This document shows, piece by piece, positions 2 to 63,518 of a stretch of 64,000 nt of DNA. The stretch comes from Blastocatellia bacterium. GTDB lineage: Bacteria > Acidobacteriota > Blastocatellia > RBC074. Each line of letters starts with the position of its first letter. Positions within the stretch are counted from its first letter, which is position 1. The translations under genes and the position numbers were made by a program. Below the pieces are notes generated by a model. The model was not told the origin of the DNA. It worked only from the letters and a program-made list of their open reading frames with translations, and ran no database searches. The stretch is taken from assembly GCA_043736395.1 (NCBI GenBank), contig JAYTCQ010000174.1, positions 4,886 to 68,885 of the forward strand, given 5' to 3'.

Positions 2-2923
2 ACTGGCGTCAATGGCATCCAAAGTAACAATTCCGCTCCGAAAGCGGGCGCCGCATACGTATTTGTGCGCAGTGCCGGCGGCTGGAGCCAACAGGCTTAT
101 CTCAAGGCCTCCAACACGGAAGCTGGTGACGAATTTGGATACACCGTTGCGATCTCTGGCGACACGATCATCGTCGGAGCGCCATTGGAAGATAGTAACG
201 CGACTGGCGCTAATGGAAATCAAAGTGACAACAGCACTCCTGACTCTGGCGCGGCGTATGTCTTTGTGCGAAATGCTGGCAACTGGAGTCAACAGGCGTA
301 CCTCAAATCCTCTAACCCCGACATTGCAGATTTATTCGGTTGGTCGGTTGGGATTTCTAATGACACCGCAGTGGTCGGAGCCTGGCTTGAGGCCAGTGCG
401 AACGGAAACCAGAGTGATAATAGCGCTGCGGTTTCCGGTGCGGCGTATGTCTTTGCACGGAACGCAGGCAATTGGAGTCAGCAGGCATACCTCAAAGCAT
501 CAAACAAGGAAGCCGGGGATGCCTTTGGCTGGACAGTCGCGATCTCCGGCGAGACGATTATTATCGGCGCACCATTTGAAGCTGGTATTCCTGGTAATCA
601 AAATAACAACAGTGCCAGTAGTTCAGGTGCGGCATATGTCTTTGCACGGAATGCAGGGATTTGGAATCAACAAGCTTATCTCAAAGCATCCAACAGTGAA
701 GCAGGCGATGCTTTCGGATGGTCGGTAGGAATTTCTGATAACTCAATCATTGTCGGCGCCCCCTTTGAATCTAGTAATGCAACAGGCGTTAACGGTAATC
801 AAAGTGACAATAGCGCTTCTGTAGCTGGGGCGGCTTATGTGTTTACCGGGAGCGCAGGAATTTGGAATCAGCAGGCATATCTAAAAGCTTCCAACACCGA
901 TATAGCAGATCTGTTCGGTTGGTCAGTAGCCGTCGCCGGCGAGCGGGCAGTAGTCGGGTCTCAAGGCGAATCCAGCAATGCAATTGGCGTTAATGGAAAC
1001 CAATACAACAATACCTCTATTTATTCCGGCGCGGCATACGCATTTATTCGTCTTTCAGGAGTATGGAACCAACAGGCTTATCTCAAAGCATCCAACCCTG
1101 ATGGAGCCGATACCTTCGGAGTTGCAGTGGCGATCTCCGGCGATACTATTTTAGTCGGGGCACCAAGTGAGGCCAGCGACGCGACGGGCGTCAATGGTAA
1201 TCAGATTACAAACAATGCTCCGAACTCCGGCGCTGCCTATATTTTCTTTATCCCATTACCTGATCTGACTCTCACCAAAACAGACGGAGGAATGATTTTC
1301 ACGCCTGGTGGAAATGGCAGCTATACAATCAATGTAAGTAACGCAGCAGCGGCTGGCCCAACCATCGGCCCGATCATCGTCACTGATAGCTTACCTAACA
1401 ATTTAACTCTCACCAGTTATAGCGGTTCTGGTTGGATTTGCACTGGCACGACCAGCCTTTCGTGTACCCACAGCGGAATATTAAATGCCGGATCAAGTTT
1501 GCCACCGCTGGCATTAACGGTGAAGGTCGGATCAGGTACCCCGACGGGATTGAATAGCATTACGAACAAAGCAACGGTCTCGACACCGACTGAAGTAAAT
1601 CTCAGCGACAACTCTCACAGCATTTCCACTAGCGTTTTGGGCGTCCCAAAACTAACCGCGAGCCTTGCTGATCCATTGGTGTGTAATGGTTCGGACGGCC
1701 TCGCATCTGTGACCGCTACGCTCAGCAATCCCAATCAGACAGCCCTGCTTGCGGCGTTTACTGCTATGCTTCCCGCGCAGCTCACCGCGCTGGCGGGAAC
1801 CTGCAATACCTCGACCAATGGTGGTTGTACAATTGCGGCTAATGGTTCCAGCGTCACTTGGAATGGAACACTCAATCCAGGGCAAACCCTTACAATTAGT
1901 TATCAGGTACAAATCGCTGCCACCGTCTCACAGGGCACGCAGCTTTGTGTCAATTCAATCGGCACGGTTGGTGGTGTCGGAACCAATTCGCAAGCGTGTC
2001 TCACGGTGAATTGTACCGGGCAGGGATTGTTACCCATTTCCAATGTTGGCGTATCCGATCAAAAGCCGGGATCACTGCTGGTATTTCCTTATTATTCATC
2101 CAAAACCACTGAACGCCACGACACGCGTCTCACGATCACCAATGTCGGCTCACAGTTGGCATACATCCATTTATTTTTGATCGAAGGGACAAATTGCTTC
2201 CCGGCAGATTTCTTTTTATGCCTGACCCCGAAAGCAATTTACTCATTTAAAGCCTCAGATTACGATCCCGAAAATACCGGCTACATGTTAGCGGTTGCGG
2301 TAGATAATCAGGGTCGTCCAATCGCGCAGAATTCGTTAATGGGTAACGCCTTTGTGGATAATGGCGAGTATCAGGGCAACTATGGAGCCGAAGCCTTTTG
2401 GCGCTATGACACGGCACTCACCAACGTCAGTGAAAACTTTGCTGTCTTAGGACTGAACGGTACACAATACGATGCCGCGCCCATTCAATTTATGGTTGAA
2501 ATTCAAAGTCCGCTGGATGCAGTTAGACAAAAAATTATTGTCGCGCCGTTGTCAGGAGATTTTAGCGGAGGAGTGGCAAGCCTCGGCAGCGCCCTTCCTA
2601 TAATTACCAATGCAGCCGCGCAAATCGGTCCTGGGCTGGCTTCTAATGAAGAAGAAAAAACAGCCAGCTTTGTTTCGTTACTGAGTGGTGGATGTTTGAA
2701 AAGCGCGGTGATCACCACCACTTCCCCGCGCATCCCACGCGGGTTAGGCAGTTTAATTCCAAAAGGTAAGATGGGATTATTGAATTTTCGCGTGGGTGCG
2801 GGAGTCGGGCTAATAATGACACCACGAACAGATACAAATCGCTGGGGTGGAATTCGAACTTTGCATAAAACAGCAGCGGGAAATATGACAATTGCTATTC
2901 CGGTTTTTGCGCCTGGTTGTTAG
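2..2923 (+). CDS. FG-GAP repeat / DUF11-like surface protein with a C-terminal uncharacterised Cys-containing domain; 5' end lies outside the window
   Basis: ORF 65..2923 is in frame with open sequence back to base 2, and that sequence continues the same repeat (..GAAYVFVRSAGGWSQQAYLKASN..), so the start is upstream of the window. There are at least 7 tandem ~55-aa repeats of the form SGAAYVFxRxxGxWxQQAYLKASNxxxxDxFGWSVAISGDTxxVGAPxExS, typical of FG-GAP beta-propeller blades. A DUF11-like segment follows (LTLTKTDGG..YTINVSN..TVKVGSG). The last ~300 aa are homologous to the tandem paralogues at 57.5-59.9 kb. Confidence 0.8.
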   Translation, partial: TGVNGIQSNNSAPKAGAAYVFVRSAGGWSQQAYLKASNTEAGDEFGYTVAISGDTIIVGAPLEDSNATGANGNQSDNSTPDSGAAYVFVRNAGNWSQQAYLKSSNPDIADLFGWSVGISNDTAVVGAWLEASANGNQSDNSAAVSGAAYVFARNAGNWSQQAYLKASNKEAGDAFGWTVAISGETIIIGAPFEAGIPGNQNNNSASSSGAAYVFARNAGIWNQQAYLKASNSEAGDAFGWSVGISDNSIIVGAPFESSNATGVNGNQSDNSASVAGAAYVFTGSAGIWNQQAYLKASNTDIADLFGWSVAVAGERAVVGSQGESSNAIGVNGNQYNNTSIYSGAAYAFIRLSGVWNQQAYLKASNPDGADTFGVAVAISGDTILVGAPSEASDATGVNGNQITNNAPNSGAAYIFFIPLPDLTLTKTDGGMIFTPGGNGSYTINVSNAAAAGPTIGPIIVTDSLPNNLTLTSYSGSGWICTGTTSLSCTHSGILNAGSSLPPLALTVKVGSGTPTGLNSITNKATVSTPTEVNLSDNSHSISTSVLGVPKLTASLADPLVCNGSDGLASVTATLSNPNQTALLAAFTAMLPAQLTALAGTCNTSTNGGCTIAANGSSVTWNGTLNPGQTLTISYQVQIAATVSQGTQLCVNSIGTVGGVGTNSQACLTVNCTGQGLLPISNVGVSDQKPGSLLVFPYYSSKTTERHDTRLTITNVGSQLAYIHLFLIEGTNCFPADFFLCLTPKAIYSFKASDYDPENTGYMLAVAVDNQGRPIAQNSLMGNAFVDNGEYQGNYGAEAFWRYDTALTNVSENFAVLGLNGTQYDAAPIQFMVEIQSPLDAVRQKIIVAPLSGDFSGGVASLGSALPIITNAAAQIGPGLASNEEEKTASFVSLLSGGCLKSAVITTTSPRIPRGLGSLIPKGKMGLLNFRVGAGVGLIMTPRTDTNRWGGIRTLHKTAAGNMTIAIPVFAPGC

Positions 2924-43312: not shown

Positions 43313-44373
43313 GTAATAACCGCTATGAAATTCATCAATCCACGCATCCGCGATTTGACTACAGAAAGAGGTGAAGGAGTAGAACGCGCTTTATTGAGCG
43401 TGACGCCCAGCACATTTGCCTGAGCGCTCCGCAATCTCTGCTGTGCTTCGCCCAGGCTGGCAAACGAAGTAACATTTTCAGTCGCCACGAGAATAACGCC
43501 GTCCACCGCGCCCGCTAATAAGGCTACTTCTGGATGACTGCTGACAGCCGGAGCATAAATCACCACCAAATCAAACATTTTCTCAAGCTCGCTTAATACC
43601 ACTGACGGAGTCCAGTTTTTCAACCAATCGTCAAGCTTGACTGCGCCCAGCGAAGAGGCAATCTCGTAAAGATTTTGTGTTCTTGTTCGTTTGATTCGAA
43701 ACGAATAATCATCTGATAAAACTTTATTTCGGTGTGTTAATGCGCTGGTTTCCGCGACTTCGAGATATGCAATTTTTAATCGCTTATATTCCGAAATTAA
43801 TTGGCTCAGATCAGCCGCTATTGGTTGGGCGCTGACTTCTGGCGCGGCTCCACAAATTAAAACTGAACGAAGCTTTCTTTGCTCTGCTTCAACCATGATG
43901 GTCGCCCGCAATTTCAACAATTGTTCGCGTGCCTCCGGCGACAAAGGCGATGGCTCTGGAGCATCAGCCTGACGAGGAACCGCCAGTTCATTGAATATCC
44001 GGCTGGCGGCTGAAGCTGCATTTTGGCTGGTGCTTTTCACTTGTGAAACTTGTTTCGGAAGAGTTGAATAATTAGCCCGGGTAGGCGATCTTTTCACAGT
44101 CTGTGAAACAATCGAAGTCGGTATGATTTGGCGCGCTTCAGGTTTCAAATTTCCTAAAACCTCAACTAACTCGTCAATTTCCGAAACGGGAAAAGTCTGC
44201 TGCCGCCGCACAGGAAGTACCTTGTTCCACTCCTGCGGTGAAACAGTAATCACTTCCCAATCTCCGGTCACAAAACCATTTTTACGCGCTGATTGTGCGA
44301 CGTTCCGGTGTGATGTATTGGTTGTCACTTGCCACATATTTTTTCTCTTTTCCGGTGCAAAAAACGAATGCAA
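43309..44373 (-). CDS. BY-kinase (Wzc/CpsD cytoplasmic ATPase)-like protein with degenerate Walker A (likely pseudo-kinase)
   Basis: The C-terminal half aligns to the BY-kinase P-loop domain. VLICGAAPEVSAQPIAADLSQLIS is where the G..GKT/S Walker A should be, and the Lys/Thr are absent. Walker A'-like DGVILVAT and Walker B-like DLVVIYAPAV are present. No C-terminal Tyr cluster. Confidence 0.45.
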   Translation of the reverse strand: MHSFFAPEKRKNMWQVTTNTSHRNVAQSARKNGFVTGDWEVITVSPQEWNKVLPVRRQQTFPVSEIDELVEVLGNLKPEARQIIPTSIVSQTVKRSPTRANYSTLPKQVSQVKSTSQNAASAASRIFNELAVPRQADAPEPSPLSPEAREQLLKLRATIMVEAEQRKLRSVLICGAAPEVSAQPIAADLSQLISEYKRLKIAYLEVAETSALTHRNKVLSDDYSFRIKRTRTQNLYEIASSLGAVKLDDWLKNWTPSVVLSELEKMFDLVVIYAPAVSSHPEVALLAGAVDGVILVATENVTSFASLGEAQQRLRSAQANVLGVTLNKARSTPSPLSVVKSRMRGLMNFIAVIT

Positions 44374-44407
44374 ATTTGTTGAATGTCGGACGATTTTTCT
44401 AAATCAC

Positions 44408-46605: not shown

Positions 46606-49560
46606 TTAAGCGATTTTGGATTGTGGGAGCAGATGATGTCGGCGCAGCATTTTTCGTAGACCATATCGTGAAACGCCTAATTCGACTGCGACTCTGGAGA
46701 TATTTCCTTTATGTCGATTCAATGCTTCACTAATAACTTGATGCTCTGTATCCGCCACGGCTTCCGCCAATGAATGTTTATGTGAGGAAAAAGAAAACGA
46801 TGAGATGAGCCGGATTTCCGAGTGACTACGAATATTCGGCGAGAGCAGTTCTTCTGTAATCATTGTGCCTGCCGGAGTCAACGCCACTAATCTTTGCATC
46901 TCATTTTCCAGTTGCCGGGCATTTCCAGGCCAATCGTATTGTTTAAGTACTGACAAGGCATTCGACGAAAGAGAAATATCCTGTTTCTCTGATTGCACAA
47001 GATTGCGCGCCAGAAAATGTTCTGCCAGTAATGAAATTTCTTCGCGACGCTCTCGCAACGGAGGCATCCGAAATTCAATCACATTCAGCCGATAATAAAG
47101 ATCAGCGCGAAATTCATGACGGGTCACCATTTCTTCTAAATCACAATTCGTTGCTGCCAGGATGCGCACATCTACAATCCTTGGCGAAGCTTCGCCAATT
47201 CTTTGGACTTCCCCGTTTTGAAAAAATCTCAGTAATTTTGGCTGCATCTCGCGCGTCAGTTCACCTATTTCATCCAGGAATAATGTTCCCTTCTCGGCGG
47301 CTCCGATCATCCCCGGAAAATCCGCAGTAGCTCCGGTAAATGATCCGCGACGATGCCCGAAAAGTTGAGACTCAATTAGCTCACGAGGCGCAGAGGCACA
47401 ATTAAAAGGAATGAATGAATGTGCCGCGCGTTTGCTATACGCATGAATCGCACGTGCGACTAATTCTTTTCCCGTTCCGGTTTCGCCTGTAATTAAAACG
47501 GTGATTTCGCTACTGCGCAAACTCAGCACCTGCGCAACAATTTTTTTCATGACTTCGCTGCGATAGACCAAACCAGGTAATGAAATTTGATTCGCTTCAG
47601 CCGCGAAAGAAGGGGTCGTAAGCAATGGATGTTTACGCATATGGGAACTGCGTTCAAATCCGGCTCTGAACTGTTTTAATAAGAGTTCCAGTAAAGAATC
47701 CGGCAACGGCGCCTTTTGTCTTCCTAAGTATATAAATTTAATTTCACTCTGTTCTGAAAATGAATAAAGCTTTGCATCTCTTAAATCAATTTCGCTTTTC
47801 ATTAAGCGCTGGCTCAACTCAGAGGCAAAAGCTTCGGTGCAACCACAATAGATAGAAGGTTCCAGTATTTCGTTAGTTTCTTTGAAAAAAATGACCGGCG
47901 AGATTTGTAATTCTTCAAATAAAATACGAGCCATTTCACGCAATAATACTTCTGCTGAGAAATCCGCATCCAGCAATCGGGTAATTACGGAAATGACCTG
48001 ATCTGTGATACCAAACTTTTTTGAATTTGCGGTGGGGGCCGTATGTAAGCTCTTAGAAAATGATTGGACACGCTCCAACATTGGCTGCGCCTCTAGTTCT
48101 TCAAAGATATTTTTAGCTGTTTTCAGGGACTGACTGGCGAGCGCGAATTCCCCGCGTTGGGACTGAGCTTCAGCAAGATAATAATTGGCAACTCCTAATC
48201 GGTAACGGTCTCCCATGACTTGTCGAATTGAAATCGCCTGATTAAAACACCCCGTAGCTTCAGTTGCCTGATTCATTGCTACGTGTACAGAACCAGAAAC
48301 TTCGCGTAACTGCCCCATCAGACTATTAGTTTCTATTCGCTCAATTTCTTCTTTGATTGATTTCAGAAGCTCATAGGCGGCAGAAATTTCTCCCAGCGCT
48401 AAATGTGCTTCTATCAGACAAAGCTGTGCGGCGGCACTTCCGCGCGGGTCTCCCATCCGTTCACAAATTTGTAAACTTTCATGAAAGGACTCGGTCGCCT
48501 TCTGCACATCGCCTGCTAATAACCGGCCCCGCCCTTGCACTAGCAATGCCACGGCATAATTAAACCCAACTTTCAGTGCTCTTAATGATTCCAGGCTTTC
48601 TGCTATTAATTGTTCGGCTTTTTCAAAGTGCCCCTTGAGATAATGTAAGTCCGCAAGTGTTTCCAGTGAAGTAGCCACAACCAGAGTCGCTTCACAATGC
48701 CGGGCTCTGGATAGCGATTCATTTAAAGCTTCTTCAGCTCGTCGCAGTTCTCCCAGCCGTAAGAGGCTATAACCCAAATTTGAGTACGCATTAATAATCA
48801 ATCTTGGATTGCGCGCGCGTTCAAGTGATGGCAAGGCTCGCTCAATTAAAATAACGCTTTCCTGCATCTGACCTTGCAATGAAGCAATCGCCGCCAAATT
48901 AATATCCGTACTGCCTTGCATCAAGGGATCATCAATCGTGCTTAAAGCTTCGAGAGCTTGATGAAATGATTGCTTTGCTTGATCAAATTCACCTTCCAGA
49001 AAATAAACAATTCCGATTCCGTTATAAGCCTGGGCTAGAAATAATTGCTGGCTCCGATTCTGATTTTCGTCTATCACTTTTGAGAAATGGTCGCGCGCAA
49101 ACCATAGTTCACCCAAACGCCGATACAGGGTCCCAAGCAAAATCTGCCCTTTGACTTTGACCTGCGCATTATTTTCTTCCTGTGATAAAGCGATGGATTG
49201 TTTGGCGTAAGCAATTGCCTTTGGTAAATCGGTGGCTCCGTAAGCCGAACCAAGTCGGTAGCAAATTTCGCTTTGGGCAAGGAGTGAAACGGCTCGGCGG
49301 TGGCGATCATCTTCATAGCCAGTCAGGACAGCCAGCGCCTTGGAAAATTGAGCTAAACTTTCCAGCGCCTCAGCTAAAAGACAACGTATCAAGGCTTCTG
49401 ATTCAGGGCGTAAGCTGGAAGATTTAAGCGCGAGTTCACAATGAGAAACGGTCTCTTCATATAAAAAACTGTGCATCGCAGAACGCGCCTGGCTGACGCA
49501 TTTTCCCCAACCGGGTGTGCGCGCTAAAGCTGATTTTTTGTCACTTCGAGAGTCTGCCAT
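46606..49560 (-). CDS. sigma-54-dependent transcriptional activator (bEBP) with N-terminal TPR array and GAF-like domain instead of a receiver; C-terminal Fis-type HTH
   Basis: AAA+ sigma-54 interaction domain with Walker A GETGTGKELVARAIH, the GAFTGA-equivalent GSFTGA, ESQLFGH and Walker B LFLDEIGEL. C-terminal HTH RHKGNISRVAVELGVSRYGLRKMLRR. The N-terminal ~600 aa contain many TPR-like helical repeats (e.g. AQAYNGIGIVYFLEGEFDQAKQSFHQALE). Confidence 0.85.
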   Translation of the reverse strand: MADSRSDKKSALARTPGWGKCVSQARSAMHSFLYEETVSHCELALKSSSLRPESEALIRCLLAEALESLAQFSKALAVLTGYEDDRHRRAVSLLAQSEICYRLGSAYGATDLPKAIAYAKQSIALSQEENNAQVKVKGQILLGTLYRRLGELWFARDHFSKVIDENQNRSQQLFLAQAYNGIGIVYFLEGEFDQAKQSFHQALEALSTIDDPLMQGSTDINLAAIASLQGQMQESVILIERALPSLERARNPRLIINAYSNLGYSLLRLGELRRAEEALNESLSRARHCEATLVVATSLETLADLHYLKGHFEKAEQLIAESLESLRALKVGFNYAVALLVQGRGRLLAGDVQKATESFHESLQICERMGDPRGSAAAQLCLIEAHLALGEISAAYELLKSIKEEIERIETNSLMGQLREVSGSVHVAMNQATEATGCFNQAISIRQVMGDRYRLGVANYYLAEAQSQRGEFALASQSLKTAKNIFEELEAQPMLERVQSFSKSLHTAPTANSKKFGITDQVISVITRLLDADFSAEVLLREMARILFEELQISPVIFFKETNEILEPSIYCGCTEAFASELSQRLMKSEIDLRDAKLYSFSEQSEIKFIYLGRQKAPLPDSLLELLLKQFRAGFERSSHMRKHPLLTTPSFAAEANQISLPGLVYRSEVMKKIVAQVLSLRSSEITVLITGETGTGKELVARAIHAYSKRAAHSFIPFNCASAPRELIESQLFGHRRGSFTGATADFPGMIGAAEKGTLFLDEIGELTREMQPKLLRFFQNGEVQRIGEASPRIVDVRILAATNCDLEEMVTRHEFRADLYYRLNVIEFRMPPLRERREEISLLAEHFLARNLVQSEKQDISLSSNALSVLKQYDWPGNARQLENEMQRLVALTPAGTMITEELLSPNIRSHSEIRLISSFSFSSHKHSLAEAVADTEHQVISEALNRHKGNISRVAVELGVSRYGLRKMLRRHHLLPQSKIA

Positions 49561-49803: not shown

Positions 49804-51726
49804 ATGCACACAGAGCATAAGAATCGTATGAAGAACCTACGTCGGGAAAAAATCTATAGATTCTCGTTGCTGCTATTGGTAACGCTCTTCCTACTGCCAA
49901 CCCAATTTTCTGGAAGCAAGGCACAAAACCAGTCATCGCAAAAAAATGAAAAGCCTTCCTGGTTGAAAAAGAAAATTGCTCCTGATTTGGAAGATTCAAA
50001 CGAGCTTCAGAATAATGACCTCCGACGTATTGTGGTGAAATTCAATAGCTTCACTTCAGACTCTGTCTTGAAATCCAAAGTGTTGGGCGTCGGCGGAAAA
50101 ATTCATAAGATTCACCAAAATATGGGTCTGGCTACAGTTGATATTCCTCGCTCACGAGTCAATGAATTGGCTGAAGCCCTGGAGGTGGAATATATCAGTC
50201 CTGATCGCCCGTTAATGGCTTTTAGTCATATTGAAACAACCACGGGGGCCGAGCAGATTCGCAATCTGGTGAGTGGAACCACACTAAACGGAAAAGGTAT
50301 CGGGATAGCAATTATTGATAGCGGAATTGACAGTAATCACAAACTGATTCGATCTTCATCAGGTCATCCCGGAATAGTAAAATATTCCAGCTTTCTCGCC
50401 AGTAGTGCAACTACCGATAAATATGGACATGGTACGCATGTCGCCTCAATTGCAAGTGGAGGCAATGAGCTTAAAGGCCTCTATCAGGGCGTCGCGCCGG
50501 GTGCCAATTTGATTAATTTACGCGTCCTCGATGATCGCGGGCTGGGCACAATCAGTAGCCTCATCGCAGCAATTGACTGGTGCATTATCAATAAAACTCT
50601 CTATAATATTCGTGTTATTAACCTAAGCGTTGGAGCTGTCGCTTCGGACAGTTATAAAAATGACCCCCTTTGTTTAGCCACACGTCGCGCTGTAAATGCT
50701 GGAATTATCGTCGTAGCAGCAGCTGGAAATGATGGAAAAAACTACATTGGGAAAAAATTTTATGGCGGCATTCACTCACCTGGAATTGACCCTTCAGTGA
50801 TTACAGTTGGTGCTACGAATTCTTACTTTACAGATCGTCGTTCTGATGACGTGGTCGCTACCTACAGCTCTCGTGGTCCCACTCGCGGATATGTCACCAG
50901 CGCTAATGGTCTGAAAAATTATGACAACTTGATTAAGCCTGATCTAGTAGCTCCCGGCAATAAAATCATTGGCGCCAGCTCCAGTAATCCAGATACTAAA
51001 GACAGCCTTAATAATCTCGTGTTGAGTTATCCTGTTTTAGCTGTCGACTCATCAGCTAAGCCTGCCGACCGGGTCATGTATTTGAATGGGACTTCGGTCG
51101 CTACCCCTGTAGTTTCCGGCGCAGTCGCATTATTGTTGCAAGCCAATCCGAACTTAACACCGAATCTGGTGAAAGCGATTTTGATGTATACAGCGCAACC
51201 AATTCGCGGATTCAACACGTTGGAGCAGGGAGCAGGATCACTTAACATTGATGGTGCTCTCCGTATCGCCAGGCTAATTAAATCCAATCCCTCTTCCTTA
51301 TCAAATGGCTCATCAATGCTAAACAGTTCACTTCCATCACCCCAACTCAGCAATATCTCCGGTGAGAATTGTTGGTGGAGTCAGGGTGTTGTGACGAACC
51401 ATTGTTTTCTGACAGGCAGCAATTTAATGATTTATTGGCAGGGGGTCTATTCGAAAAGCTTTACTCTGACGGATGCAACTAAGGTTACTAACGGTAGTTT
51501 CTCTCAAGTCCCAGGACTCACTTCGTGGGGAATTTCAAATAGCCTTGGAGTAACTTTTGCCGATGGAAACACGATGGCTGATGGCTATCTTCTCGCAAAC
51601 GGTGTAACTTTTGCTGATGGAATAGCCTTTCCCAGTGGAGTCACCTTTGCCGACGGTCAAATGGTCTTCGATAGCACGATCATCACAAAATCCGTCAAAT
51701 CAAAGGTTGTGGTACCTGGTGACTAG
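49804..51726 (+). CDS. secreted subtilisin-like serine peptidase (S8 family) with C-terminal GVTFADG repeats
   Basis: Catalytic triad motifs: AIIDSGIDSNH (Asp), HGTHVASIASG (His), GTSVATPVVSGAVALL (Ser). Signal peptide after the second Met (MKNLRREKIYRFSLLLLVTLFLLP). The C-terminus has three degenerate GVTFADG repeats. Confidence 0.85.
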   Translation: MHTEHKNRMKNLRREKIYRFSLLLLVTLFLLPTQFSGSKAQNQSSQKNEKPSWLKKKIAPDLEDSNELQNNDLRRIVVKFNSFTSDSVLKSKVLGVGGKIHKIHQNMGLATVDIPRSRVNELAEALEVEYISPDRPLMAFSHIETTTGAEQIRNLVSGTTLNGKGIGIAIIDSGIDSNHKLIRSSSGHPGIVKYSSFLASSATTDKYGHGTHVASIASGGNELKGLYQGVAPGANLINLRVLDDRGLGTISSLIAAIDWCIINKTLYNIRVINLSVGAVASDSYKNDPLCLATRRAVNAGIIVVAAAGNDGKNYIGKKFYGGIHSPGIDPSVITVGATNSYFTDRRSDDVVATYSSRGPTRGYVTSANGLKNYDNLIKPDLVAPGNKIIGASSSNPDTKDSLNNLVLSYPVLAVDSSAKPADRVMYLNGTSVATPVVSGAVALLLQANPNLTPNLVKAILMYTAQPIRGFNTLEQGAGSLNIDGALRIARLIKSNPSSLSNGSSMLNSSLPSPQLSNISGENCWWSQGVVTNHCFLTGSNLMIYWQGVYSKSFTLTDATKVTNGSFSQVPGLTSWGISNSLGVTFADGNTMADGYLLANGVTFADGIAFPSGVTFADGQMVFDSTIITKSVKSKVVVPGD

Positions 51727-51769
51727 GTTATTTATAAAATAACTTTATTGAGAGCTAACGCGAGCATAT

Positions 51770-52480
51770 ATGAACAGCCATTTTCCCGGCATCAAAAGCT
51801 TACATCTTCTAATGATTGCAAGTGTTTTTTCATTTTTATTAATGCAATCATCGGGAGCGCAATCAATTCCCAAACCAACTGAAAAATCAGCCCAGACGAA
51901 TGTTGTTAATTCAACTCCTGACTATCAAATTCACAAAGGCGATAAACTCAGTATCAAATTTCTTTATCAGCCGGAATTGAGTGATGCGGCAGTTGTCGTG
52001 CGACCAGATGGCAAGATCAGCTTGCCAATGGTAGATGAACTGAAGGTGGAAGGATTAACTGCACAACAAGTGAAGAAGTTACTCGAAAAAGCCTATCGGG
52101 AAATCCTGCTTGATCCTGAAATTAATGTCAGCGTCATAGAATTTGTGCCTCAGCGCTTTTTTGTTGGAGGGCAGGTTTTTAAACCGGGAAGCTATGACAT
52201 GCGCGCCGGACAAACTCTCTTACAAGCTATCATTCTGGCCGGAGGATTTACGCCGGACGCGCATCGAAAATATGTGCTTCACGCCAGACCAGTTGGCAAT
52301 AAAGAACTGAAAGTAACAGCGATTGATGTGACGAAAATCTTAAAAACCGGGGATAACAAAGAAGAAATTTTTCTTCAGGATGGAGACTATATTTTTATCC
52401 CCAACTCAAAACTTTCAAAATTTAATTCAATCGTAACGGCGTTTCGCTCTATCATGCCGGGGTATGCCATTCAGTTTTAA
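51770..52480 (+). CDS. polysaccharide export protein (Wza/GumB/EpsA-like, Poly_export + SLBB)
   Basis: Signal peptide. Poly_export-type N-terminal domain (YQIHKGDKLSIKFLYQPELSDAAVVVRPDGKISLPMVDELKVEGLTAQQV). Second SLBB-like domain (ILKTGDNKEEIFLQDGDYIFIPN). Confidence 0.75.
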   Translation: MNSHFPGIKSLHLLMIASVFSFLLMQSSGAQSIPKPTEKSAQTNVVNSTPDYQIHKGDKLSIKFLYQPELSDAAVVVRPDGKISLPMVDELKVEGLTAQQVKKLLEKAYREILLDPEINVSVIEFVPQRFFVGGQVFKPGSYDMRAGQTLLQAIILAGGFTPDAHRKYVLHARPVGNKELKVTAIDVTKILKTGDNKEEIFLQDGDYIFIPNSKLSKFNSIVTAFRSIMPGYAIQF

Positions 52481-56646: not shown

Positions 56647-57462
56647 AGATTCTTCCTCACGGAAATGTGCTTTTAGTCAACACAATTATTTTGCAGTTAT
56701 CAAGACTTCTCAGCACTCACGCATGTCTTAGCGCAATGAAATTCATTGCATCTTTTAAATTATAGTTAAGGGTTGTTTTAATACTTTGATCGGAACCTAT
56801 CACTTGAAAGTAGAACTCAAGGGGCGGCGGGCAACTGAAAAGTACCATTAACCTGATGAAGAGACAATAAAAAAATAGAATAATAGTTTTTTCATAAATG
56901 CTTGCTCTACTTTTATTAAAGAAATTCTTCAGCTCTCAAGGCAATAAATTTGAAAAAATCCGCCAAATTTATTTAATTCTAATAAACTGTAAAAATTTTG
57001 GATAATTTTAAAGTTGACGCAGTGCTAAAATGTGATCTATTATTATTTTGATAACTAATAGTCATCCTCACATATCCGGCAACACCCATGATGACTTTTA
57101 TCAAGTAAGTGTCCAGGTCAGTTTTTGTCCTGTCCAGCATCCCCAATTCCTTTTCAGCGTGCCCAGTAACGAATAGCATCTGTTTTATATTACACTCGCG
57201 CCTAACAATTTGGTTTTCCGTTTCAATATTGAATCTAAGTGACCAATCAAGATGTCGTTAGATCATCTGAATTGAGAATTTGCCTTTATTAGCAATTTCT
57301 ATTTTCCATCACTGGGTTTAGCAGCTCTCCAAGTTGCTGAATAGTTGCCTTTACTTTAATAATTTCTGAGCGACGGTTAGGAGTCAAAGCTTTACAGTTT
57401 TGATTTAAGCTCCTAATTTTCGAGTGCTCCGCTCGAGGGTTACGAACCAAAACACACACATC

Positions 57463-57487
57463 CTCAGGTAATTCCTGAGAGAGGGGA
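57463..57487 (+). promoter_or_regulatory. conserved leader hairpin abutting the RBS of tandem paralogue 1
   Basis: ctcagg-taatt-cctgag (6-bp stem, 5-nt loop) followed directly by agagggga (SD-like). The 29-nt block catcctcaggtaaYtcctgagagagggga is repeated almost exactly upstream of paralogue 2 at 58787-58815. Confidence 0.4.
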
Positions 57488-57493
57488 ATGAAC

Positions 57494-58582
57494 ATGCACA
57501 CCTCACACAAATTCACACACATTCTTTTGACACTATTCGTGCTCATCGTAAGCGTTACCGCATCGATGGCACAGGCTACCCCAAGTATTCCCAGCGATAT
57601 GAAACAAGGCTCAATGCTGTTTTACAACGCTTACACTTCAACTGTTGGTGATGCTGCGCAAAATACGCGGATCAATATCACGAATACGAATCCTACTAAA
57701 TCCGTTAACGTCCATTTTTTCTTTGTCCGAAGTAGTGATTGCACTATTGCAGATACTTATGTCTGCTTGACGGCTAGTCAGACTTTTTCCTTCCTGGCTT
57801 CGGAATATGATCCTGGCGAGTCCGGCTTCATCTTTGCCGTTGCGACCGATGATGCTGGCTGCCCTATTAATTTTAATTATTTGATAGGTGACTTGTATGC
57901 AAAGAGCTTCTTTGGAACATCCACTTATTTTCAGGCCAATTTAGGTGCCGTCGCCTTTGCCGCACAAAATATTTGGGATGGAGCAAATTATGTCGCCTGG
58001 GCTCCTGGAACACGAGCATTGCTTTTCAATAACGACATGCTTTGCGCTATTGCTTTTGGTCTCTACCACGACCTGACGAATCCAACCATTTGTCACGCCT
58101 TATACGATAAAGTTCCTTCCCAAATGGCAGTTGACAACATCCAGAGCGAAGCTGATGGAAATAATACTTTGCTGATCTTGCACTCAATGCAGGGTAAACC
58201 TGAACAGGCTGGTGCTATTGGCATTATTCTGGGACAAGTCTTCGATGATAATGAAAAGGGATACAGCTTCCAGACAACTTCGGTAGGCTGCTTCTGGGCC
58301 AGACTTATTAACAGATCATTTATTCGTATTCCACTGGGAATTGACAAAGTCATCTCTAAAGGTCGCACCGGATGGATGTATTTCCAATCACCTAATGGCG
58401 GCACCACTGGCGTCCCTGACCTGGGCTTACTTGGAGCCACAATTGTCAGTAACAACAGACCTGATGGCTTCAATGGTGGTCATAACCTTCACATGACACG
58501 ATTTAAAGATAATCGTGGTTTCGCTATCCCGGTCTTCCCGAGCGGTGTAGCGTGTGCTGGTATCGCTCCTGTTGGAGACTAA
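57494..58582 (+). CDS. secreted hypothetical protein, tandem paralogue 1 (shares a ~300-aa uncharacterised domain with the FG-GAP protein C-terminus)
   Basis: Start placed at the second ATG (MHTSHKFTH, spacing to the SD ~6 nt; the ORF track starts at 57488). Signal peptide ..ILLTLFVLIVSVTASMAQA. About 70% identical to 58825..59922. Shared motifs with the FG-GAP protein: SDxKxGSxL, TRxxITN, CLT, SFxASxYDP, AVAxDxxGxPI, NxGAxAF, KGxxGxxxF, AIPVF. Confidence 0.8.
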   Translation: MHTSHKFTHILLTLFVLIVSVTASMAQATPSIPSDMKQGSMLFYNAYTSTVGDAAQNTRINITNTNPTKSVNVHFFFVRSSDCTIADTYVCLTASQTFSFLASEYDPGESGFIFAVATDDAGCPINFNYLIGDLYAKSFFGTSTYFQANLGAVAFAAQNIWDGANYVAWAPGTRALLFNNDMLCAIAFGLYHDLTNPTICHALYDKVPSQMAVDNIQSEADGNNTLLILHSMQGKPEQAGAIGIILGQVFDDNEKGYSFQTTSVGCFWARLINRSFIRIPLGIDKVISKGRTGWMYFQSPNGGTTGVPDLGLLGATIVSNNRPDGFNGGHNLHMTRFKDNRGFAIPVFPSGVACAGIAPVGD

Positions 58583-58618
58583 GTGATTCTTTTTTAAAAT
58601 CTTTATTTACTTAAAGAT

Positions 58619-58659
58619 AACCGGAAGCAGAGATTCTCTGTTTCCGGTTTTTTATTTTT
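58619..58659 (+). terminator. rho-independent terminator after paralogue 1
   Basis: aaccggaagcagag-att-ctctgtttccggtt (14-bp stem, one mismatch) followed by ttttttattttt. Confidence 0.7.
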
Positions 58660-58790
58660 CTCCCATCTTTTCTGAAATCCCTCCTCAATTAGCAGTCTCT
58701 ATAGTCCGTCACTGGAGTCTAAGAATGAACCGACCCGAAAGCTCAGGTCTGGGTTGTCTCAAAGGCTTACCATTAAGACCAAATTACATC

Positions 58791-58815
58791 CTCAGGTAAC
58801 TCCTGAGAGAGGGGA
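58791..58815 (+). promoter_or_regulatory. conserved leader hairpin abutting the RBS of tandem paralogue 2
   Basis: ctcagg-taact-cctgag then agagggga. It is identical to the element at 57463-57487 except for one loop base. ATG at 58825. Confidence 0.4.
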
Positions 58816-58824
58816 TTTTTCACC

Positions 58825-59922
58825 ATGACCTCACACAAATTCACACACATTTTCTTAACGCTGTTGGCCCTAATTATTTGCGCGACAGCTTCGATGGCAC
58901 AAGGACCTATAGAACCTGGAGTCGCCAGTGACCAGAAACAGGGATCACTTTTGTTCTATAATACCTATACCTCAACAATTGGTGACGCTTCGCAAAACAC
59001 GCGAATCAACATCACGAATACTCATCACACATCTTCGGTTAACGTTCATCTATTCTTTGTCCGAAGCATTGATTGCACCATTGCAGACACTTATGTCTGT
59101 CTGACAGCAAATCAAACCTTTTCCTTCCTGGCTTCTGAGTATGATCCCGGCGAAACGGGTTTCATCTTCGGAGTCGCCACAGATGACAATGGCTCACCAA
59201 TCAACTTCAATTATTTGATTGGCGATTTATATGTGAAGAGCTACTTCGGAACGCCTAACTATTTCCAAGCCAATTTAGGCGCAGAAGCTTTTGCCGCTCA
59301 AAACAAATGGACTGGTACGGCGTATGCAAAATGGAACGAATACACTGCGGCTCCGCTCTTCGGAAATGACATGCTGTGCGCTATCGCATTTGGCCTTTAT
59401 CACGATACCAGCAGCCCCGCAGCGGAATTGACCCCACACGCTTTATACGACCGTGTGCCTGTCACTTTGGCCGTTGATAACATTCAAAGCGAAGCCGATG
59501 GTAATGCTACCTTGTTGATCCTGCACTCAATGCAAGGTAGAACTGACCGAGCTGGTGTTATTGGCAGTATTGCTGGTCAGGTCTTTGATGATGTGGAAAG
59601 AGGATACAGCTTCCAATCTTCAAATCTCAGTTGCTATTCAGCAAGATTGATCAATCGGGCTTCTGTTCGTGTCCCAACGGGAATTGACAAAGTTATTTCA
59701 AAAGGAAAAACCGGATGGATGTACTTCACTTCCCCAACCAACGGACAAGGATTATCTGAACTTGGATTGCTCGGCGCCAGCATTGTCAGCAATGGCAGAA
59801 ATGATGCAGCAGCATTCAACGGTGGACATAATCTTCATCAGATTCGTGTCAAAGACAATCGCGGTTTCGCTATCCCAGTCTTTCCGAGTGGCGTGGCTTG
59901 CGCTCCTTCGATGACTTGGTAA
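58825..59922 (+). CDS. secreted hypothetical protein, tandem paralogue 2
   Basis: MTSHKFTHIFLTLLALIICATASMAQG signal peptide. Collinear with paralogue 1 along its whole length (e.g. VNVHLFFVRSIDCTIADTYVCLTANQTFSFLASEYDPGETGFIFGVATDDNGSPINFNYLIGDLY). Confidence 0.8.
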   Translation: MTSHKFTHIFLTLLALIICATASMAQGPIEPGVASDQKQGSLLFYNTYTSTIGDASQNTRINITNTHHTSSVNVHLFFVRSIDCTIADTYVCLTANQTFSFLASEYDPGETGFIFGVATDDNGSPINFNYLIGDLYVKSYFGTPNYFQANLGAEAFAAQNKWTGTAYAKWNEYTAAPLFGNDMLCAIAFGLYHDTSSPAAELTPHALYDRVPVTLAVDNIQSEADGNATLLILHSMQGRTDRAGVIGSIAGQVFDDVERGYSFQSSNLSCYSARLINRASVRVPTGIDKVISKGKTGWMYFTSPTNGQGLSELGLLGASIVSNGRNDAAAFNGGHNLHQIRVKDNRGFAIPVFPSGVACAPSMTW

Positions 59923-59950
59923 GTTAAAAAGTCCTTTGGATAAAACTAAA

Positions 59951-59990
59951 GACCAGAAGTTGTTAAATCAACTTCTGGTCTTTTTCTTTT
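59951..59990 (+). terminator. rho-independent terminator after paralogue 2
   Basis: gaccagaagttg-ttaaat-caacttctggtc (perfect 12-bp stem) followed by tttttctttt. Confidence 0.75.
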
Positions 59991-60063
59991 CTGAACTCGA
60001 CTTTATCAGCCGATTCGGTAGAATGAGCATCTATTTTCAAACTGATTTTTGGAGGGACTCACG

Positions 60064-62520
60064 ATGCAGGATTTTGAAATTCTTGGACAATTCTATCTCG
60101 GCAAAAAATACGATTTAAAAAAACAGGCTTCTTCAGACGACCTGATTCTTTATGATTCAAAAGACATGGTCACGCATGCCGTTTGCGTAGGCATGACAGG
60201 CAGTGGCAAAACAGGTCTTTGTCTCAGCCTGCTCGAAGAAGCGGCGATGGATTCCGTTCCGGTAATTGCGATTGATCCTAAAGGTGATCTGGCAAATTTG
60301 CTGTTAACTTTTCCTGATCTTGCACCTGGCGATTTTGAGCCGTGGATCAACGAAGATGATGCCCGTCGCAAAGGCGTCAGCCCTTCAGAATTTGCCACTC
60401 AACAATCGGAGCTTTGGAAAAATGGGCTGGCGAAATGGGGACAGGATGGCGAGCGAATTCGTAAGCTGAGAGAAACTGCTGAATTTGCGATTTATACGCC
60501 AGGCAGCAGTGCCGGGATTCAGCTTTCGATTATGAAATCGTTCACTGTGCCACCTCCGGAAATCATGGAAGACGGCGAATTGCTACGTGAACGCATCAGC
60601 ACTACAGTCACGAGCCTACTCGGTTTGCTCGGTATCGAAGCCGATCCCATTCGCAGCCGTGAACATATTCTGCTTTCAACGATCATTAATACCTGCTGGC
60701 AAAATGGTAAAGACCTTGATCTCGCAGCACTGATTCAGCAAATTCAGCAACCGCCATTCAATAAAATTGGCGTGATGGATATTGAATCTTTTTATCCAGG
60801 CAAAGAACGTTTTGAGCTGGCGATGTCCATTAACAATTTATTGGCTTCGCCTGGCTTCAGTTCGTGGATGGAAGGCGAACCTCTTGACATCAATAACCTC
60901 CTTTACACATCAACTGGTAAACCGAAAATTTCGATTATCTCCATCGCTCATCTGAACGACGCCGAACGAATGTTTATGGTGTCTTTGCTACTCAATCAGG
61001 TCTTGGGTTGGATGCGACAACAATCAGGAACTACCAGTTTACGTGCGATGCTGTACATGGATGAAATCTTCGGATACTTCCCGCCTGTTGCTAATCCACC
61101 TTCAAAACAACCATTGCTGACCTTGCTGAAACAGGCGCGCGCTTTTGGTTTGGGAATTATGCTCGCCACGCAAAACCCGGTAGATTTGGATTATAAAGGC
61201 TTGGGCAATACAGGAACCTGGTTCATTGGACGGCTGCAAACGGAACGTGATAAGGCGCGTGTTTTGGAAGGTCTCGAAGGCGCATCGGCCAGCGCCGGAA
61301 TGGAGTTTGATCGCGGTGCGATGGAAGAAATCCTGGCCGGCTTGGGCAATCGAATTTTCCTGATGAATAACGTTCACAACGACGCGCCTGTGGTTTTCGA
61401 GACGCGCTGGGCGATGTCGTATTTACGTGGCCCACTCACCCGCAATCAAATCAAACAGCTCACCGATCCGATCAGAGATCAATTGCAAGGCGTGCCGATG
61501 GTTGCGGCTAAAGCGGCGCCAACTTCTGGAACGAAAAAAGCCGCGACTTCCAGTGCAAGTACAGGTGCGCGTCCATTGTTAGCTTCGGATGTCACACAAT
61601 ATTTTTTACCTGTCAGATCAAATGCGCCGGATGAAGGTTGTACGTTAGTTTATTCGCCGATGGTGATTGGCGCGACTGATATTCATTTCGTAGATTCAAA
61701 AACAGAAATAGATCATTCGCAAGTCGCTGTTTTTCTTGCTTCAATTACTGACAACACTATTCCGGTTGACTGGTCGGATGCGAATGAAATCAGTATTGAT
61801 CCAAATGATTTAGAAACAGAACCAAACGATGCCGGACAATTTGCCGAAGTCCCTTCAGTTGCGGGCAAAGGGAAAAGCTTTGAAAAATGGGGCAAAGACT
61901 TAACTGATTTTATTTATCGCAATCGCACCATTGATTTGTTATACAGCGAATATCACGAAGTTTTTTCCACGCCTGACGAGTCTGAACGCGATTTCCGGGT
62001 ACGATTAAATCAACTCGTACGCGAAACCCGGGACGGCGAAGTCGAAAATCTCAGACAAAAGTATGCAACGAAAATTGCGGCTTTAGAGGAGCGCATGCGC
62101 CGCGCTCAAATGGCTGTTGAGAAAGAAGCACAAGAAGCGCAATCTGCAAAAATGCAGGGATTTCTTTCCATCGGAGCTTCTTTGCTCGGCGCATTCATGG
62201 GCAACAAAATGGTTAGCTCAACAAATATTCGCCGTGGAGCTAGTGCCATCAGCAGCATGTCCCGAGCTTCTAAACAATCAGGAGATGTTGGAAGAGCTGA
62301 AGAAACTGTCGAAGCAATTGGCGCCCAAATTCAGGAATTAGAAGCGCAGTTCCAAGCCGAAACCGACGCCTTGAAATCGCAAAGCGACCCAACGACCGAG
62401 CGCCTCGAGACGATTTCCGCTAAACCCAAAAAGAAAGACATTGCCTTAAAAGTTGTCGCTTTAGCCTGGGATCCTCAGTGGCAAGACGAACGCGGCGACC
62501 TAACTCCTGCCTGGGAATAA
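60064..62520 (+). CDS. HerA/FtsK-like P-loop NTPase (DUF853/YjgR-like) with ~300-aa C-terminal coiled-coil extension
   Basis: Start at the ATG 7 nt after the GGAGGGA RBS; the ORF track starts at an upstream TTG. Walker A GMTGSGKTG. Walker B-like LYMDEIFGYFPP. AIDPKGDL and the rest are collinear with HerA-like DUF853 ATPases (~500 aa). The C-terminal part is a long charged coiled coil (RLNQLVRETRDGEVENLRQKYATKIAALEERMRRAQMAVEKEAQEAQ..). Confidence 0.55.
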   Translation: MQDFEILGQFYLGKKYDLKKQASSDDLILYDSKDMVTHAVCVGMTGSGKTGLCLSLLEEAAMDSVPVIAIDPKGDLANLLLTFPDLAPGDFEPWINEDDARRKGVSPSEFATQQSELWKNGLAKWGQDGERIRKLRETAEFAIYTPGSSAGIQLSIMKSFTVPPPEIMEDGELLRERISTTVTSLLGLLGIEADPIRSREHILLSTIINTCWQNGKDLDLAALIQQIQQPPFNKIGVMDIESFYPGKERFELAMSINNLLASPGFSSWMEGEPLDINNLLYTSTGKPKISIISIAHLNDAERMFMVSLLLNQVLGWMRQQSGTTSLRAMLYMDEIFGYFPPVANPPSKQPLLTLLKQARAFGLGIMLATQNPVDLDYKGLGNTGTWFIGRLQTERDKARVLEGLEGASASAGMEFDRGAMEEILAGLGNRIFLMNNVHNDAPVVFETRWAMSYLRGPLTRNQIKQLTDPIRDQLQGVPMVAAKAAPTSGTKKAATSSASTGARPLLASDVTQYFLPVRSNAPDEGCTLVYSPMVIGATDIHFVDSKTEIDHSQVAVFLASITDNTIPVDWSDANEISIDPNDLETEPNDAGQFAEVPSVAGKGKSFEKWGKDLTDFIYRNRTIDLLYSEYHEVFSTPDESERDFRVRLNQLVRETRDGEVENLRQKYATKIAALEERMRRAQMAVEKEAQEAQSAKMQGFLSIGASLLGAFMGNKMVSSTNIRRGASAISSMSRASKQSGDVGRAEETVEAIGAQIQELEAQFQAETDALKSQSDPTTERLETISAKPKKKDIALKVVALAWDPQWQDERGDLTPAWE

Positions 62521-62696
62521 TTATTACTGAGCAAGCGCGGCGCTATGTTATAGTTACTGCGCTTGCTTGGTCTGTTTGAGCAAGTTTACGATTACAATTT
62601 CCTACCGCGCTATTTTTTAATTCCATCATGACAATGCCTCGTCTAACCTTCGTCACTTGTGAAATCCACAAGCGATATTTTCCGGAAAGGAATAAA

Positions 62697-63518
62697 ATGC
62701 GTTTTTTGATGATTCCATGTTTTATTTTGCTGACTGTGATTTCCTTTACAGGTTGCGTAACAAACACCACTGAAGGCGCAGTTCAGGTTCAAGTTGTGCG
62801 CGGACAAATTAATCGAATCATCAAACCTTCAGATGGTTGGGTTGGAACATTAACTACTGTTGGCGATCAATATTACGACATTGATTTACGTTCGTTTACT
62901 GAAAATGTTGACGTTGGAGCAAGTACCAAAGATAACGCCGCACTCAAAATTAGCATTGCCGTGACAGCTCATGTCATTTCTGAAGATGACAGCATCAAAG
63001 CCTATGTGCGTAAATTCGGGTTGGAGCAAAAAGAGCGTCACGACCGAAGAAATGCGATTTTAATGGGACACGTGAACACCGAAACAAAAAATGCAGTGGC
63101 AGGTTTTGATGCATACAGCTTATTAGCGAATCAGGAAGCCATCCAAAAAAGTATCACGAATTCACTAAGCTCTATCTTCAAACAACAATTATTACTCGAA
63201 TTGGAATCAGTACAAATTATTGGACGACCGGATTTTGTGGATGATCGCATTGAGCTGGCTGCCAGTTCTGTCGTCGCCAATCAAAAGGCTAAAGAAGCTG
63301 CCGAAGCTGATTTGGCTCGCGCGAAGGTCGAGGCAGAAAAGAAACAAGTTGAAGCACTAACTTTCAATAATCCAGCTTTATTACAAATCAAATTACTGGA
63401 AATGCGCCTGGACATCGAACGCGCCAGAGCCGAGGGCATTGCCAGACATCAAGGGCCGCTGACCATTGTCAATGGTGCGACCGATACTCAAATTCAATTG
63501 CGAGCCAGCGAAAAATGA
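62697..63518 (+). CDS. SPFH (band-7/stomatin/prohibitin-like) domain lipoprotein
   Basis: Start placed at MRFLMIPCFILLTVISFTGC (signal peptide plus lipobox FTGC, RBS aagga upstream). SPFH hallmarks: VQVVRGQ..R and the TKDN motif (ASTKDNAALKISIAVTAHV). C-terminal coiled coil (AEADLARAKVEAEKKQVEAL). Confidence 0.55.
   Translation: MRFLMIPCFILLTVISFTGCVTNTTEGAVQVQVVRGQINRIIKPSDGWVGTLTTVGDQYYDIDLRSFTENVDVGASTKDNAALKISIAVTAHVISEDDSIKAYVRKFGLEQKERHDRRNAILMGHVNTETKNAVAGFDAYSLLANQEAIQKSITNSLSSIFKQQLLLELESVQIIGRPDFVDDRIELAASSVVANQKAKEAAEADLARAKVEAEKKQVEALTFNNPALLQIKLLEMRLDIERARAEGIARHQGPLTIVNGATDTQIQLRASEK

Follow-up and report, generated by a model that had tools for sequence, protein, structure and literature searches.

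The 64,000-nt window analyzed here (forward strand of contig JAYTCQ010000174.1, positions 4,886 to 68,885; assembly GCA_043736395.1) comes from a Blastocatellia bacterium and carries three genes that share a domain of about 300 residues. Two of them, ORF1 and ORF2, lie in tandem and encode stand-alone copies of the domain, while the third encodes a large FG-GAP/DUF11 protein that ends in it. The domain family is described in none of the domain libraries and papers searched, yet it is not rare. The coordinates of the genes and of the features around them are collected in Table 1.

ORF1 and ORF2 had been described in a first-pass annotation of the window as collinear open reading frames (ORFs) of 364 and 365 aa with about 70% identity. 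Both exist and are collinear, and the two proteins are 73% identical over 360 aligned columns. ORF1 probably starts at its second ATG (57494) rather than at the one at 57488, since the second ATG has the proper spacing from the GAGAGGGGA Shine-Dalgarno sequence, gives the same protein as database entry P0001, and yields an N-terminus (MHTSHK...) of the M-x-TSHK type typical of the family. Sec-type signal peptides were recognized on both proteins, in agreement with the proposed secretion. That of ORF1 covers approximately residues 1-30 in the 364-aa numbering, ending in ...TASMAQA before TP, and the domain occupies approximately residues 34-357. As an intrinsic terminator follows ORF1, the two genes are separate transcription units.

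The synonymous sites of ORF1 and ORF2 are saturated (proportion of synonymous differences, pS, 0.74), so that the duplication is old; the nonsynonymous divergence (dN) is 0.19 and dN/dS about 0.06. A contig from a related metagenome-assembled genome (MAG), L084, retains orthologues of both genes in the same tandem order, with 85% amino-acid identity and a dN/dS of 0.07 for ORF1, and 80% and 0.14 for ORF2. The corresponding values were 98% and 0.02 for IMPDH (guaB) and 95% and 0.05 for ValRS (valS). The pair thus diverges several-fold faster than these housekeeping neighbors, while the divergence of the adjacent RodZ-like and response-regulator genes equals or exceeds that of the pair. Since dN/dS lies between 0.06 and 0.14, ORF1 and ORF2 are under purifying selection and hence functional, with the fast evolution often seen in surface proteins. 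Positive selection was considered and rejected on the basis of these overall ratios and because the proportion of nonsynonymous differences exceeded pS in none of the 30-codon stretches. The mechanically called ORFs at 12-728 (+), 57289-57546 (-), 58093-58473 (-), and 59669-59914 (+) overlap the FG-GAP gene, ORF1, or ORF2 in other frames and were discarded as genes; an antisense ORF within family genes recurs in 44 loci, which is due simply to the homology of the genes.

The 952-aa ORF (65-2923) of the FG-GAP/DUF11 gene is not closed at the window start, so that the gene is partial and encodes no fewer than 973 aa. Its description as a surface-type protein was upheld by Pfam matches to FG-GAP_2 (240.8 bits, six stretches) and DUF11 (36.2 bits, cutoff 24.6). 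The proposed similarity of its C-terminus to ORF1 and ORF2, which might have sunk to noise under proper statistics, proved to be far beyond chance, with E values of 3e-27 and 3e-30, respectively, in single BLASTP comparisons, over approximately 295 residues at 29% identity. The proposed span of residues ~640-952 was correct as to the C-terminal location, but the domain starts only near residue 652-664 (nt ~2018-2054), and the approximately 70 residues before it form a separate Ig-like module. The conserved blocks listed by the first-pass annotation, SDxKxGS, TRxxITN, VHxF, CLT, SF.AS.YDP, AVA.D..G.PI, N.GA.AF, G..G, LH, and IPVF, all fall on columns that are invariant or almost so when 46 and 50 sequences are aligned. 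The copy in the FG-GAP protein belongs to a second subfamily, consisting mostly of stand-alone proteins of 320-350 aa, and retrieved 163 matches in a homologue search.

Genes for a Ycf48-like BNR propeller and a TonB_C protein flank family genes both in the window (3056-4917, minus strand) and in a second genome (locus L001, 14078-17600). The adjoining family gene is the fused FG-GAP form in the window, but in L001 there are three tandem stand-alone copies, which suggests that free and fused forms substitute for each other at one locus.

Table 1. Coordinates of the family genes and associated features in the window
Feature	Position	Strand	Remarks
ORF1	57494..58582	+	Stand-alone secreted domain copy, 362 aa; 364 aa if translated from the alternative ATG upstream (57488)
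ORF2	58825..59922	+	Tandem paralogue of ORF1, 365 aa
FG-GAP/DUF11 protein, passenger part	2..1813	+	FG-GAP_2 repeats (6 stretches) and DUF11; N-terminus beyond the window
FG-GAP/DUF11 protein, Cys-rich Ig-like module	1814..2017	+	Directly before the domain; below-threshold DUF7927 match (E 3.1e-5, 24.7 bits, curated cutoff 31)
FG-GAP/DUF11 protein, C-terminal domain copy	2018..2923	+	Ends ...AIPVFAPGC, then stop codon
Second conserved hairpin, TCGAG...CTCGA	57420-57437	+	ORF1-type genes, ~60 nt upstream
Hairpin CTCAGG...CCTGAG of ORF1	57462..57487	+	Conserved; abuts the invariant TGAGAGAGGGGA Shine-Dalgarno block
Leader motif of ORF1, ACCTCACACAAATTCACACA	57500..57519	+	Encodes TSHKFTH, codons 3-9 of the signal peptide
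Intrinsic terminator after ORF1	58619..58659	+	14-bp stem, then T-run
Hairpin and Shine-Dalgarno block before ORF2	58790..58815	+	Same as those of ORF1
Leader motif of ORF2	58828..58847	+	Same motif at gene start
Intrinsic terminator after ORF2	59948..59993	+	15-bp stem, then T-run
Wzx/Wzy-type polysaccharide cluster	31621-45868	-	11 kb from the pair; two GT4 glycosyltransferases, flippase, Wzy_C, Bac_transf priming transferase, Wzz
Secreted GSDH-PKD-Big-PA14 protein	within 31621-45868	-	Part of the polysaccharide cluster
TPR-containing sigma-54 activator, subtilase, Wza-like exporter	46606-49560, 49804-52480		After the polysaccharide cluster; Wza-like gene at 51770
Nonribosomal peptide synthetase (NRPS) cluster	14922-31603	-	4'-phosphopantetheinyl transferase, 1725-aa A-T-C-A-T protein, C-A-T-TE protein, A-T-TE protein

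The domain had been called unassignable, and the library searches bore this out, as it was without a match in Pfam-A (2025), NCBIfam (2026), PHROGs, and the PDB sequences. The confident placement in a Pfam family that had been named as counter-evidence did not appear, since hmmscan against Pfam-A at E values up to 1 returned no family for ORF1, ORF2, or the last 300 residues of the FG-GAP protein. The PDB sequences were searched with the family profile at E values up to 10 with no match, and neither 1NC7 nor 2II7, discussed below, was retrieved. Full-text searches of the literature gave no description of this domain family. One stand-alone member, the 347-aa metagenome protein P0370, carries the JGI label "phage baseplate assembly protein gpV". 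The label is unsupported, because the protein has neither a PHROG family match nor a similar fold in BFVD (Foldseek TM-scores of at most 0.21), and a viral or phage relationship was rejected on the same evidence.

A word-indexed search with ORF1 retrieved 623 relatives, and when the family profile was run with HMMER over all 1.84 billion representatives, 1,437 clusters (50% identity, E up to 1e-3) matched, 732 of them at E values up to 1e-30. All members with a source name were from Acidobacteriota, mostly from Blastocatellia. With the most divergent, SLH-bearing member as the query, the named matches were again only from Blastocatellia/Acidobacteriota, and none lay outside Acidobacteriota. 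Species-representative genomes were also scanned, and the 77 best distinct loci all came from Acidobacteriota/Blastocatellia MAGs, in some cases with several loci per MAG. A number of MAG records named "uncultured Heliomicrobium sp." or "Heliobacteriaceae" carry a Blastocatellia-type family and show synteny with Blastocatellia contigs, and these labels look wrong (L005, L017, L024, L028, L033, L037, L039, L040, L046-L048, L054, L058, L059, and L076).

The stand-alone form, with 320-380 aa and a signal peptide, was common in every search and often occurs in tandem arrays of 2-4 genes. The fused form ranges from 440 to more than 5,800 aa and carries the domain behind very varied modules. The passengers identified in 43 fused proteins included HYR (11), Big_3_5 (8), DUF11 (6), He_PIG (5), DUF7933 (4), FG-GAP (3), P_proprotein (3), and Beta_helix (3), as well as Calx-beta, NosD, SBBP, NHL, LTD, and dockerin modules, and a DUF7927-like module directly precedes the domain in most fused members according to the consensus of the same 43. 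A module that stays constant while its passengers vary points to a shared role in localization or binding. The first-pass annotation had spoken of a head domain; a constant domain behind dozens of unrelated passengers would suit a common attachment module no less than a head that determines specificity.

In 375 of 383 database proteins with a near-full copy, the protein ends at most 15 residues from the end of the domain, and in the 78 loci the domain closes every complete ORF that carries it. The usual terminus is (I/V)P(V/I)FPP(S/N/G/T)C, typically ...IPVFPPSC-COOH, with Cys as the last residue. Such an extreme and conserved C-terminal end, the high diversity of the cargo, and the restriction to one lineage, as expected of a lineage-specific machine, might indicate that the domain serves sorting or attachment in a dedicated export pathway not yet described; the leader described below and the Cys-ended domain would then mark substrates for outer-membrane secretion or covalent attachment, much as C-terminal domains do in the type IX (T9SS) and cargo domains in the type XI (T11SS) secretion systems. 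We regard this as very unlikely, since the majority of members consist of nothing but the domain and offer no cargo to be sorted, and its 300 residues are three times the size of known sorting domains. Moreover, 11 proteins have 2-3 copies, some of them directly behind the signal peptide or internal; these N-terminal and internal copies lack the terminal Cys and continue into DUF11 or Big_3_5 repeats. Three proteins (P0161, P0129, and P0130) have one copy at each end, and P0128 reads signal peptide-domain-DUF11-Big_3_5-domain and then continues into SLH repeats (PF00395, E 2.3e-7, 31.1 bits), an anchor of its own. From these multi-copy, both-end, and SLH-ended proteins it follows that the module is no obligatory C-terminal signal in itself and that its use is multivalent.

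The same architectures bear on the possibility that the domain is a self-assembling structural subunit of a pilus, fimbria, or S-layer, with the approximately 31-kDa stand-alone proteins as major subunits that the large proteins join via their C-terminal copy. The tandem arrays of 2-4 stand-alone paralogues, each with a strong Shine-Dalgarno sequence, a leader, and a terminator, and the strict C-terminal position in the 375 proteins keep this explanation alive, and it also draws on arrays mixing free and fused genes (L014 and L076), on leader conservation, which suggests co-regulation or high expression, and on the tetrameric state of TM1070 and ASRT, to which part of the domain is similar in fold. 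We consider it unlikely, because N-terminal and internal copies occur, a donor-strand-like N-terminal extension is missing, no pilin fold was matched, and genes for assembly functions (chaperone, usher, sortase, or others) are not conserved in the vicinity of the family genes. The last point follows from an all-against-all clustering of the ORFs in 78 loci, in which no neighbor family was conserved across the loci and the best was found in 12 of the 78; thus, no dedicated chaperone, usher, sortase, or secretion gene adjoins the family, and the sorting explanation likewise lacks any linked machinery gene.

Stand-alone members of both subfamilies and many fused members begin with the leader M-x-T-S-(H/R)-K-(L/F/H)-T-(H/Q), behind which lies a hydrophobic stretch. 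This leader was found in 55 of 101 family ORFs and in only 1 of 3,102 other ORFs of the loci, and its presence in both free and fused proteins is a further point in favor of a sorting signal. At the nucleotide level, the consensus of the first ~9 codons of the family genes (loci L001-L079) is ATG CGA ACC TCA CRC AAA CTY ACA CAY, and the codon choice is far from the gene-wide usage: at the respective positions, Arg is encoded by CGA in 25 of 28 cases (5% gene-wide), Thr by ACC in 48 of 54 (35%), Ser by TCA in 50 of 54 (13%), Leu by CTC or CTT in 40 of 41 (26%), and the second Thr by ACA in 34 of 38 (12%). Allowing up to 2 mismatches, the 20-nt motif ACCTCACRCAAAYTYRCACA occurs 52 times in 1.2 Mb of loci, 51 times at the 5′ end of a family gene, and pS between orthologues reaches its minimum in the first 30 codons. 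The constraint on synonymous sites therefore indicates that selection acts not only on the peptide but also on the nucleotide sequence, and suggests that an RNA- or DNA-level signal overlaps the region encoding the signal peptide.

Upstream of the leader, RNAalifold predicted both ORF1 stems from the aligned leaders of L002-L011, only one pair showing clear compensation (AU/GC), and in relatives the CTCAGG/CCTGAG stem is extended by compensating pairs. An Rfam search of the conserved 5′ leaders gave no match. Sequestration of the Shine-Dalgarno sequence by the ACCUCAC leader motif was considered and rejected, as inspection by eye gave only partial complementarity, with four contiguous pairs, in the ORF1 clade and none apparent in the main clade. 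It is quite unlikely, in our estimation, that the leader MxTS(H/R)K(L/F)TH together with the Cys-ended C-terminal domain marks the substrates of an undescribed export, attachment, or co-regulation pathway specific to Blastocatellia, with the stand-alone proteins as its structural or adaptor component.

The AlphaFold2 model of ORF1, built from the family alignment, had a predicted local distance difference test (pLDDT) score of 91.1 and a predicted template modeling (pTM) score of 0.87, and consisted of a helix at residues 6-28 (the signal peptide) followed by about 24 β-strands. The model of the DUF7927-plus-domain tail of the FG-GAP protein had an overall pLDDT of 89.7, mostly 93-98 within the domain, with two weaker blocks at 84-88 and one at about 61 (model residues 251-260), and showed the same strand order as ORF1. 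In the fold comparison, one sub-domain, about one third of the domain, was an eight-stranded β-sandwich with TM1070 topology, matching the TM1070/ASRT-like sandwich at 6% identity. The N-terminal third is the likelier TM1070/ASRT-like part, because the invariant N66 ends predicted strand 2 and a polar face is formed by N59, R61, and N63. Approximately 200 further β-structured residues match no known fold. An internal duplication of the domain was rejected, as hhalign comparisons of its N-terminal, middle, and C-terminal thirds gave probabilities of at most 0.3%.

Twenty residues were nearly universal among 400 domain instances, namely G41, S42, Y49, S51, T60, R61, N66, H76, D89, T95, D108, P109, G113, G134, N151, Y206, E256, S260, H335, and P348. 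About 15 of these are polar (S42, Y49, S51, T60, R61, N66, H76, D89, T95, D108, N151, Y206, E256, S260, and H335), and predicted strand 2 bears a polar N-x-R-x-N-x-T-N face. The near-universal H76, D89, D108, E256, S260, H335, K39, and R61 could form a catalytic or metal site, so that an enzyme with a novel β-sandwich scaffold, for example a glycan-modifying or -cleaving enzyme or a peptidase, was considered, and the strong purifying selection on the family would suit it. An enzyme is nevertheless hardly probable, since neither a family-library match nor an enzyme fold was found, the occurrence of several copies in one chain, together with fusions that mostly involve Ig-like stalks, is what one expects of binding modules, and the GGHNLH motif does not always keep its H332 (Arg in 145 of the 400 instances and Ile in the FG-GAP copy of the window). 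Isopeptide, thioester, catalytic-triad, and metal-site roles were considered for K39, N66, E256, C93, Q98, H76, D89, S260, and H335, and none of them is claimed.

Among the same 400 instances, whose relatedness inflates the counts, C85 and C93 were both present in 370, both absent in 14, and discordant in 16, and C268 and the C-terminal Cys were both present in 364, both absent in 13, and discordant in 16. Judging from this co-occurrence, two disulfides are probably formed, C85-C93 and C268 with the C-terminal Cys. The co-occurring Cys pairs and the Sec signal peptides point to an oxidizing, extracytoplasmic location, and the co-occurrence of the terminal Cys with C268, as in a plain disulfide, is a further argument against a sorting role.

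The nine distinct loci of the clade nearest to ORF1 and ORF2 (L002-L005 and L007-L011) adjoin a Wzx/Wzy-type polysaccharide cluster with Wzy, Wza, Wzc, and flippase genes, as do two loci of other clades. The window also has such a cluster (Table 1), in which the ORFs 43309-44373 and 44408-45868 were without a Pfam match. In L084, valS follows guaB almost directly, whereas approximately 37.5 kb (~14922-52480) lie between them in the window. The NRPS and polysaccharide clusters, the sigma-54 activator, the S8 peptidase, and the Wza-like gene accordingly look like an inserted island. Because the polysaccharide cluster is situated in this block, which is absent from L084, the closeness of the pair to it is not ancestral here. 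Genes for a Laminin_G_3 protein, an SGL/NHL propeller, and a PAP2 phosphatase are interspersed in the NRPS cluster. Beyond the strong terminator that follows ORF2 and on the same strand, genes for an 823-aa HerA/DUF87-like P-loop ATPase and an SPFH/Band-7 protein occupy 60049-63518; the HerA/DUF87-like ATPase is also found behind the pair in L084 and is not beside family genes elsewhere.

The reading that we favor, although we put it at somewhat less than an even chance, is that the domain is a disulfide-stapled, lectin-like binding module common to a large family of surface and matrix proteins. Of the two functions proposed by the first-pass annotation, ligand binding or enzymatic, the former is favored by prediction, because of the TM1070/ASRT-like sandwich sub-domain, the multi-copy proteins, and the SLH anchor on one variant; the latter found no enzyme fold in its support. 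The binding of a ligand, its glycan nature, and its origin from the cell itself or from a foreign source are what we infer from this evidence. The variable passengers, the multi-copy use, the approximately 15 near-universal polar residues, the Cys pairs, the neighboring polysaccharide clusters, and the low dN/dS all speak for a binding module. Several points weigh against it. The fold match covers only one third of the domain at 6% identity, and the Pfam ASRT model gave no match; a binding role does not account for the near-strict placement at the C-terminus, for the Cys at the very end, or for the constraint on the leader nucleotides; so many invariant polar residues would also fit an active site; and the link to polysaccharide clusters holds mainly for one clade, where it may reflect synteny, while the L084 pair is not near any such cluster.

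As a binding module, the ~300-residue unit would be a non-enzymatic, extracytoplasmic, all-β element, probably stapled by two disulfides, and would serve as the constant part of a large paralogous family in Blastocatellia. A polysaccharide, either on the cell surface or in the biofilm matrix, is the most likely candidate for its ligand. Once exported by the Sec route, the free ORF1 and ORF2 proteins might act as soluble or matrix-associated lectin-like proteins, while fused copies would tether differing passengers (FG-GAP propellers, DUF11, HYR/Big_3 stalks, and β-helices) to the same ligand, and proteins with a copy at both ends could be cross-linkers.

Blastocatellia are abundant in soil and biocrust, have few cultured members, and their cell surface is almost uncharacterized. 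With at least 1,437 clusters, several loci per genome, and a position at the end of proteins of up to 5,800 residues, the domain is probably a main organizer of the surface and matrix proteome. Its definition would allow many "hypothetical" proteins to be annotated and would provide a handle on the aggregation and adhesion of Blastocatellia, and the leader, with its synonymous-site constraint, lends itself to testing whether the whole family is controlled at the level of mRNA or export. Should the domain prove to be a plain lectin-like module, the benefit would lie mainly in annotation.

Among known systems, the partial fold match leads to the ASRAH superfamily (de Souza, Iyer and Aravind 2009), which comprises eight-stranded sandwiches including TM1070 (PDB 1NC7), the Anabaena sensory rhodopsin transducer (2II7), and Pfam DUF1362/ASRT (PMC2739507). 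For ASRAH domains, sugar binding on one sheet face was predicted and secreted dyad and tetrad versions were described; their hallmarks are a strand-1 Trp, an Asn ending strand 2, and the ligand signature SHEshChhN (PMC2739507). By sequence, membership of our domain was not indicated, with no Pfam match at E values up to 1 and 6% identity. No SHEshChhN (His/Cys) signature and no strand-1 Trp are apparent in the domain. It also differs from ASRAH domains in being three times larger, in having disulfides, and in its mostly C-terminal location in giant surface proteins.

The C-terminal domains of the type IX secretion system (T9SS; Por_Secre_tail and CHU_C) resemble the domain in their extreme C-terminal position, diverse passengers (HYR, Big, FG-GAP, and β-helix), and lineage restriction. 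They differ in size (70-100 versus ~300 residues), in that our domain also has stand-alone, N-terminal, and internal copies, and in the lack of linked machinery, and the T9SS sorting-domain models (TIGR04183/TIGR04131 and Por_Secre_tail) gave no match in NCBIfam or Pfam. The ...IPVFPPSC end contains no PEP motif and has no transmembrane or hydrophobic tail, and with no NCBIfam match it does not correspond to PEP-CTERM/exosortase substrates. The C-terminal outer-membrane β-barrel of autotransporters (type V) was not found, nor were the linked assembly genes and pilin fold of chaperone-usher or sortase pilins. The free small paralogues in tandem and the larger proteins with the same C-terminal domain recall the two-domain FimH/PapG adhesins, in which a lectin domain is joined to a C-terminal pilin domain homologous to the free major subunits, but our domain is much larger, matched no pilin fold, and has neither chaperone nor usher genes in its neighborhood.

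The cell-wall proteins of C. difficile with CWB2 modules and the SLH proteins of Bacillus are paralogous surface families built on a constant glycan-binding anchor. They are not related to our family in sequence or detected fold, its hosts are diderm Acidobacteria, and one of its members carries SLH repeats besides. However, the organization is alike, with a constant module of similar total size joined to variable regions, many paralogues per genome, and some members that are little more than the module. By this analogy, we think that the domain works like the CWB2- and SLH-type anchors, and that it is in kind most probably one more extracellular binding module.

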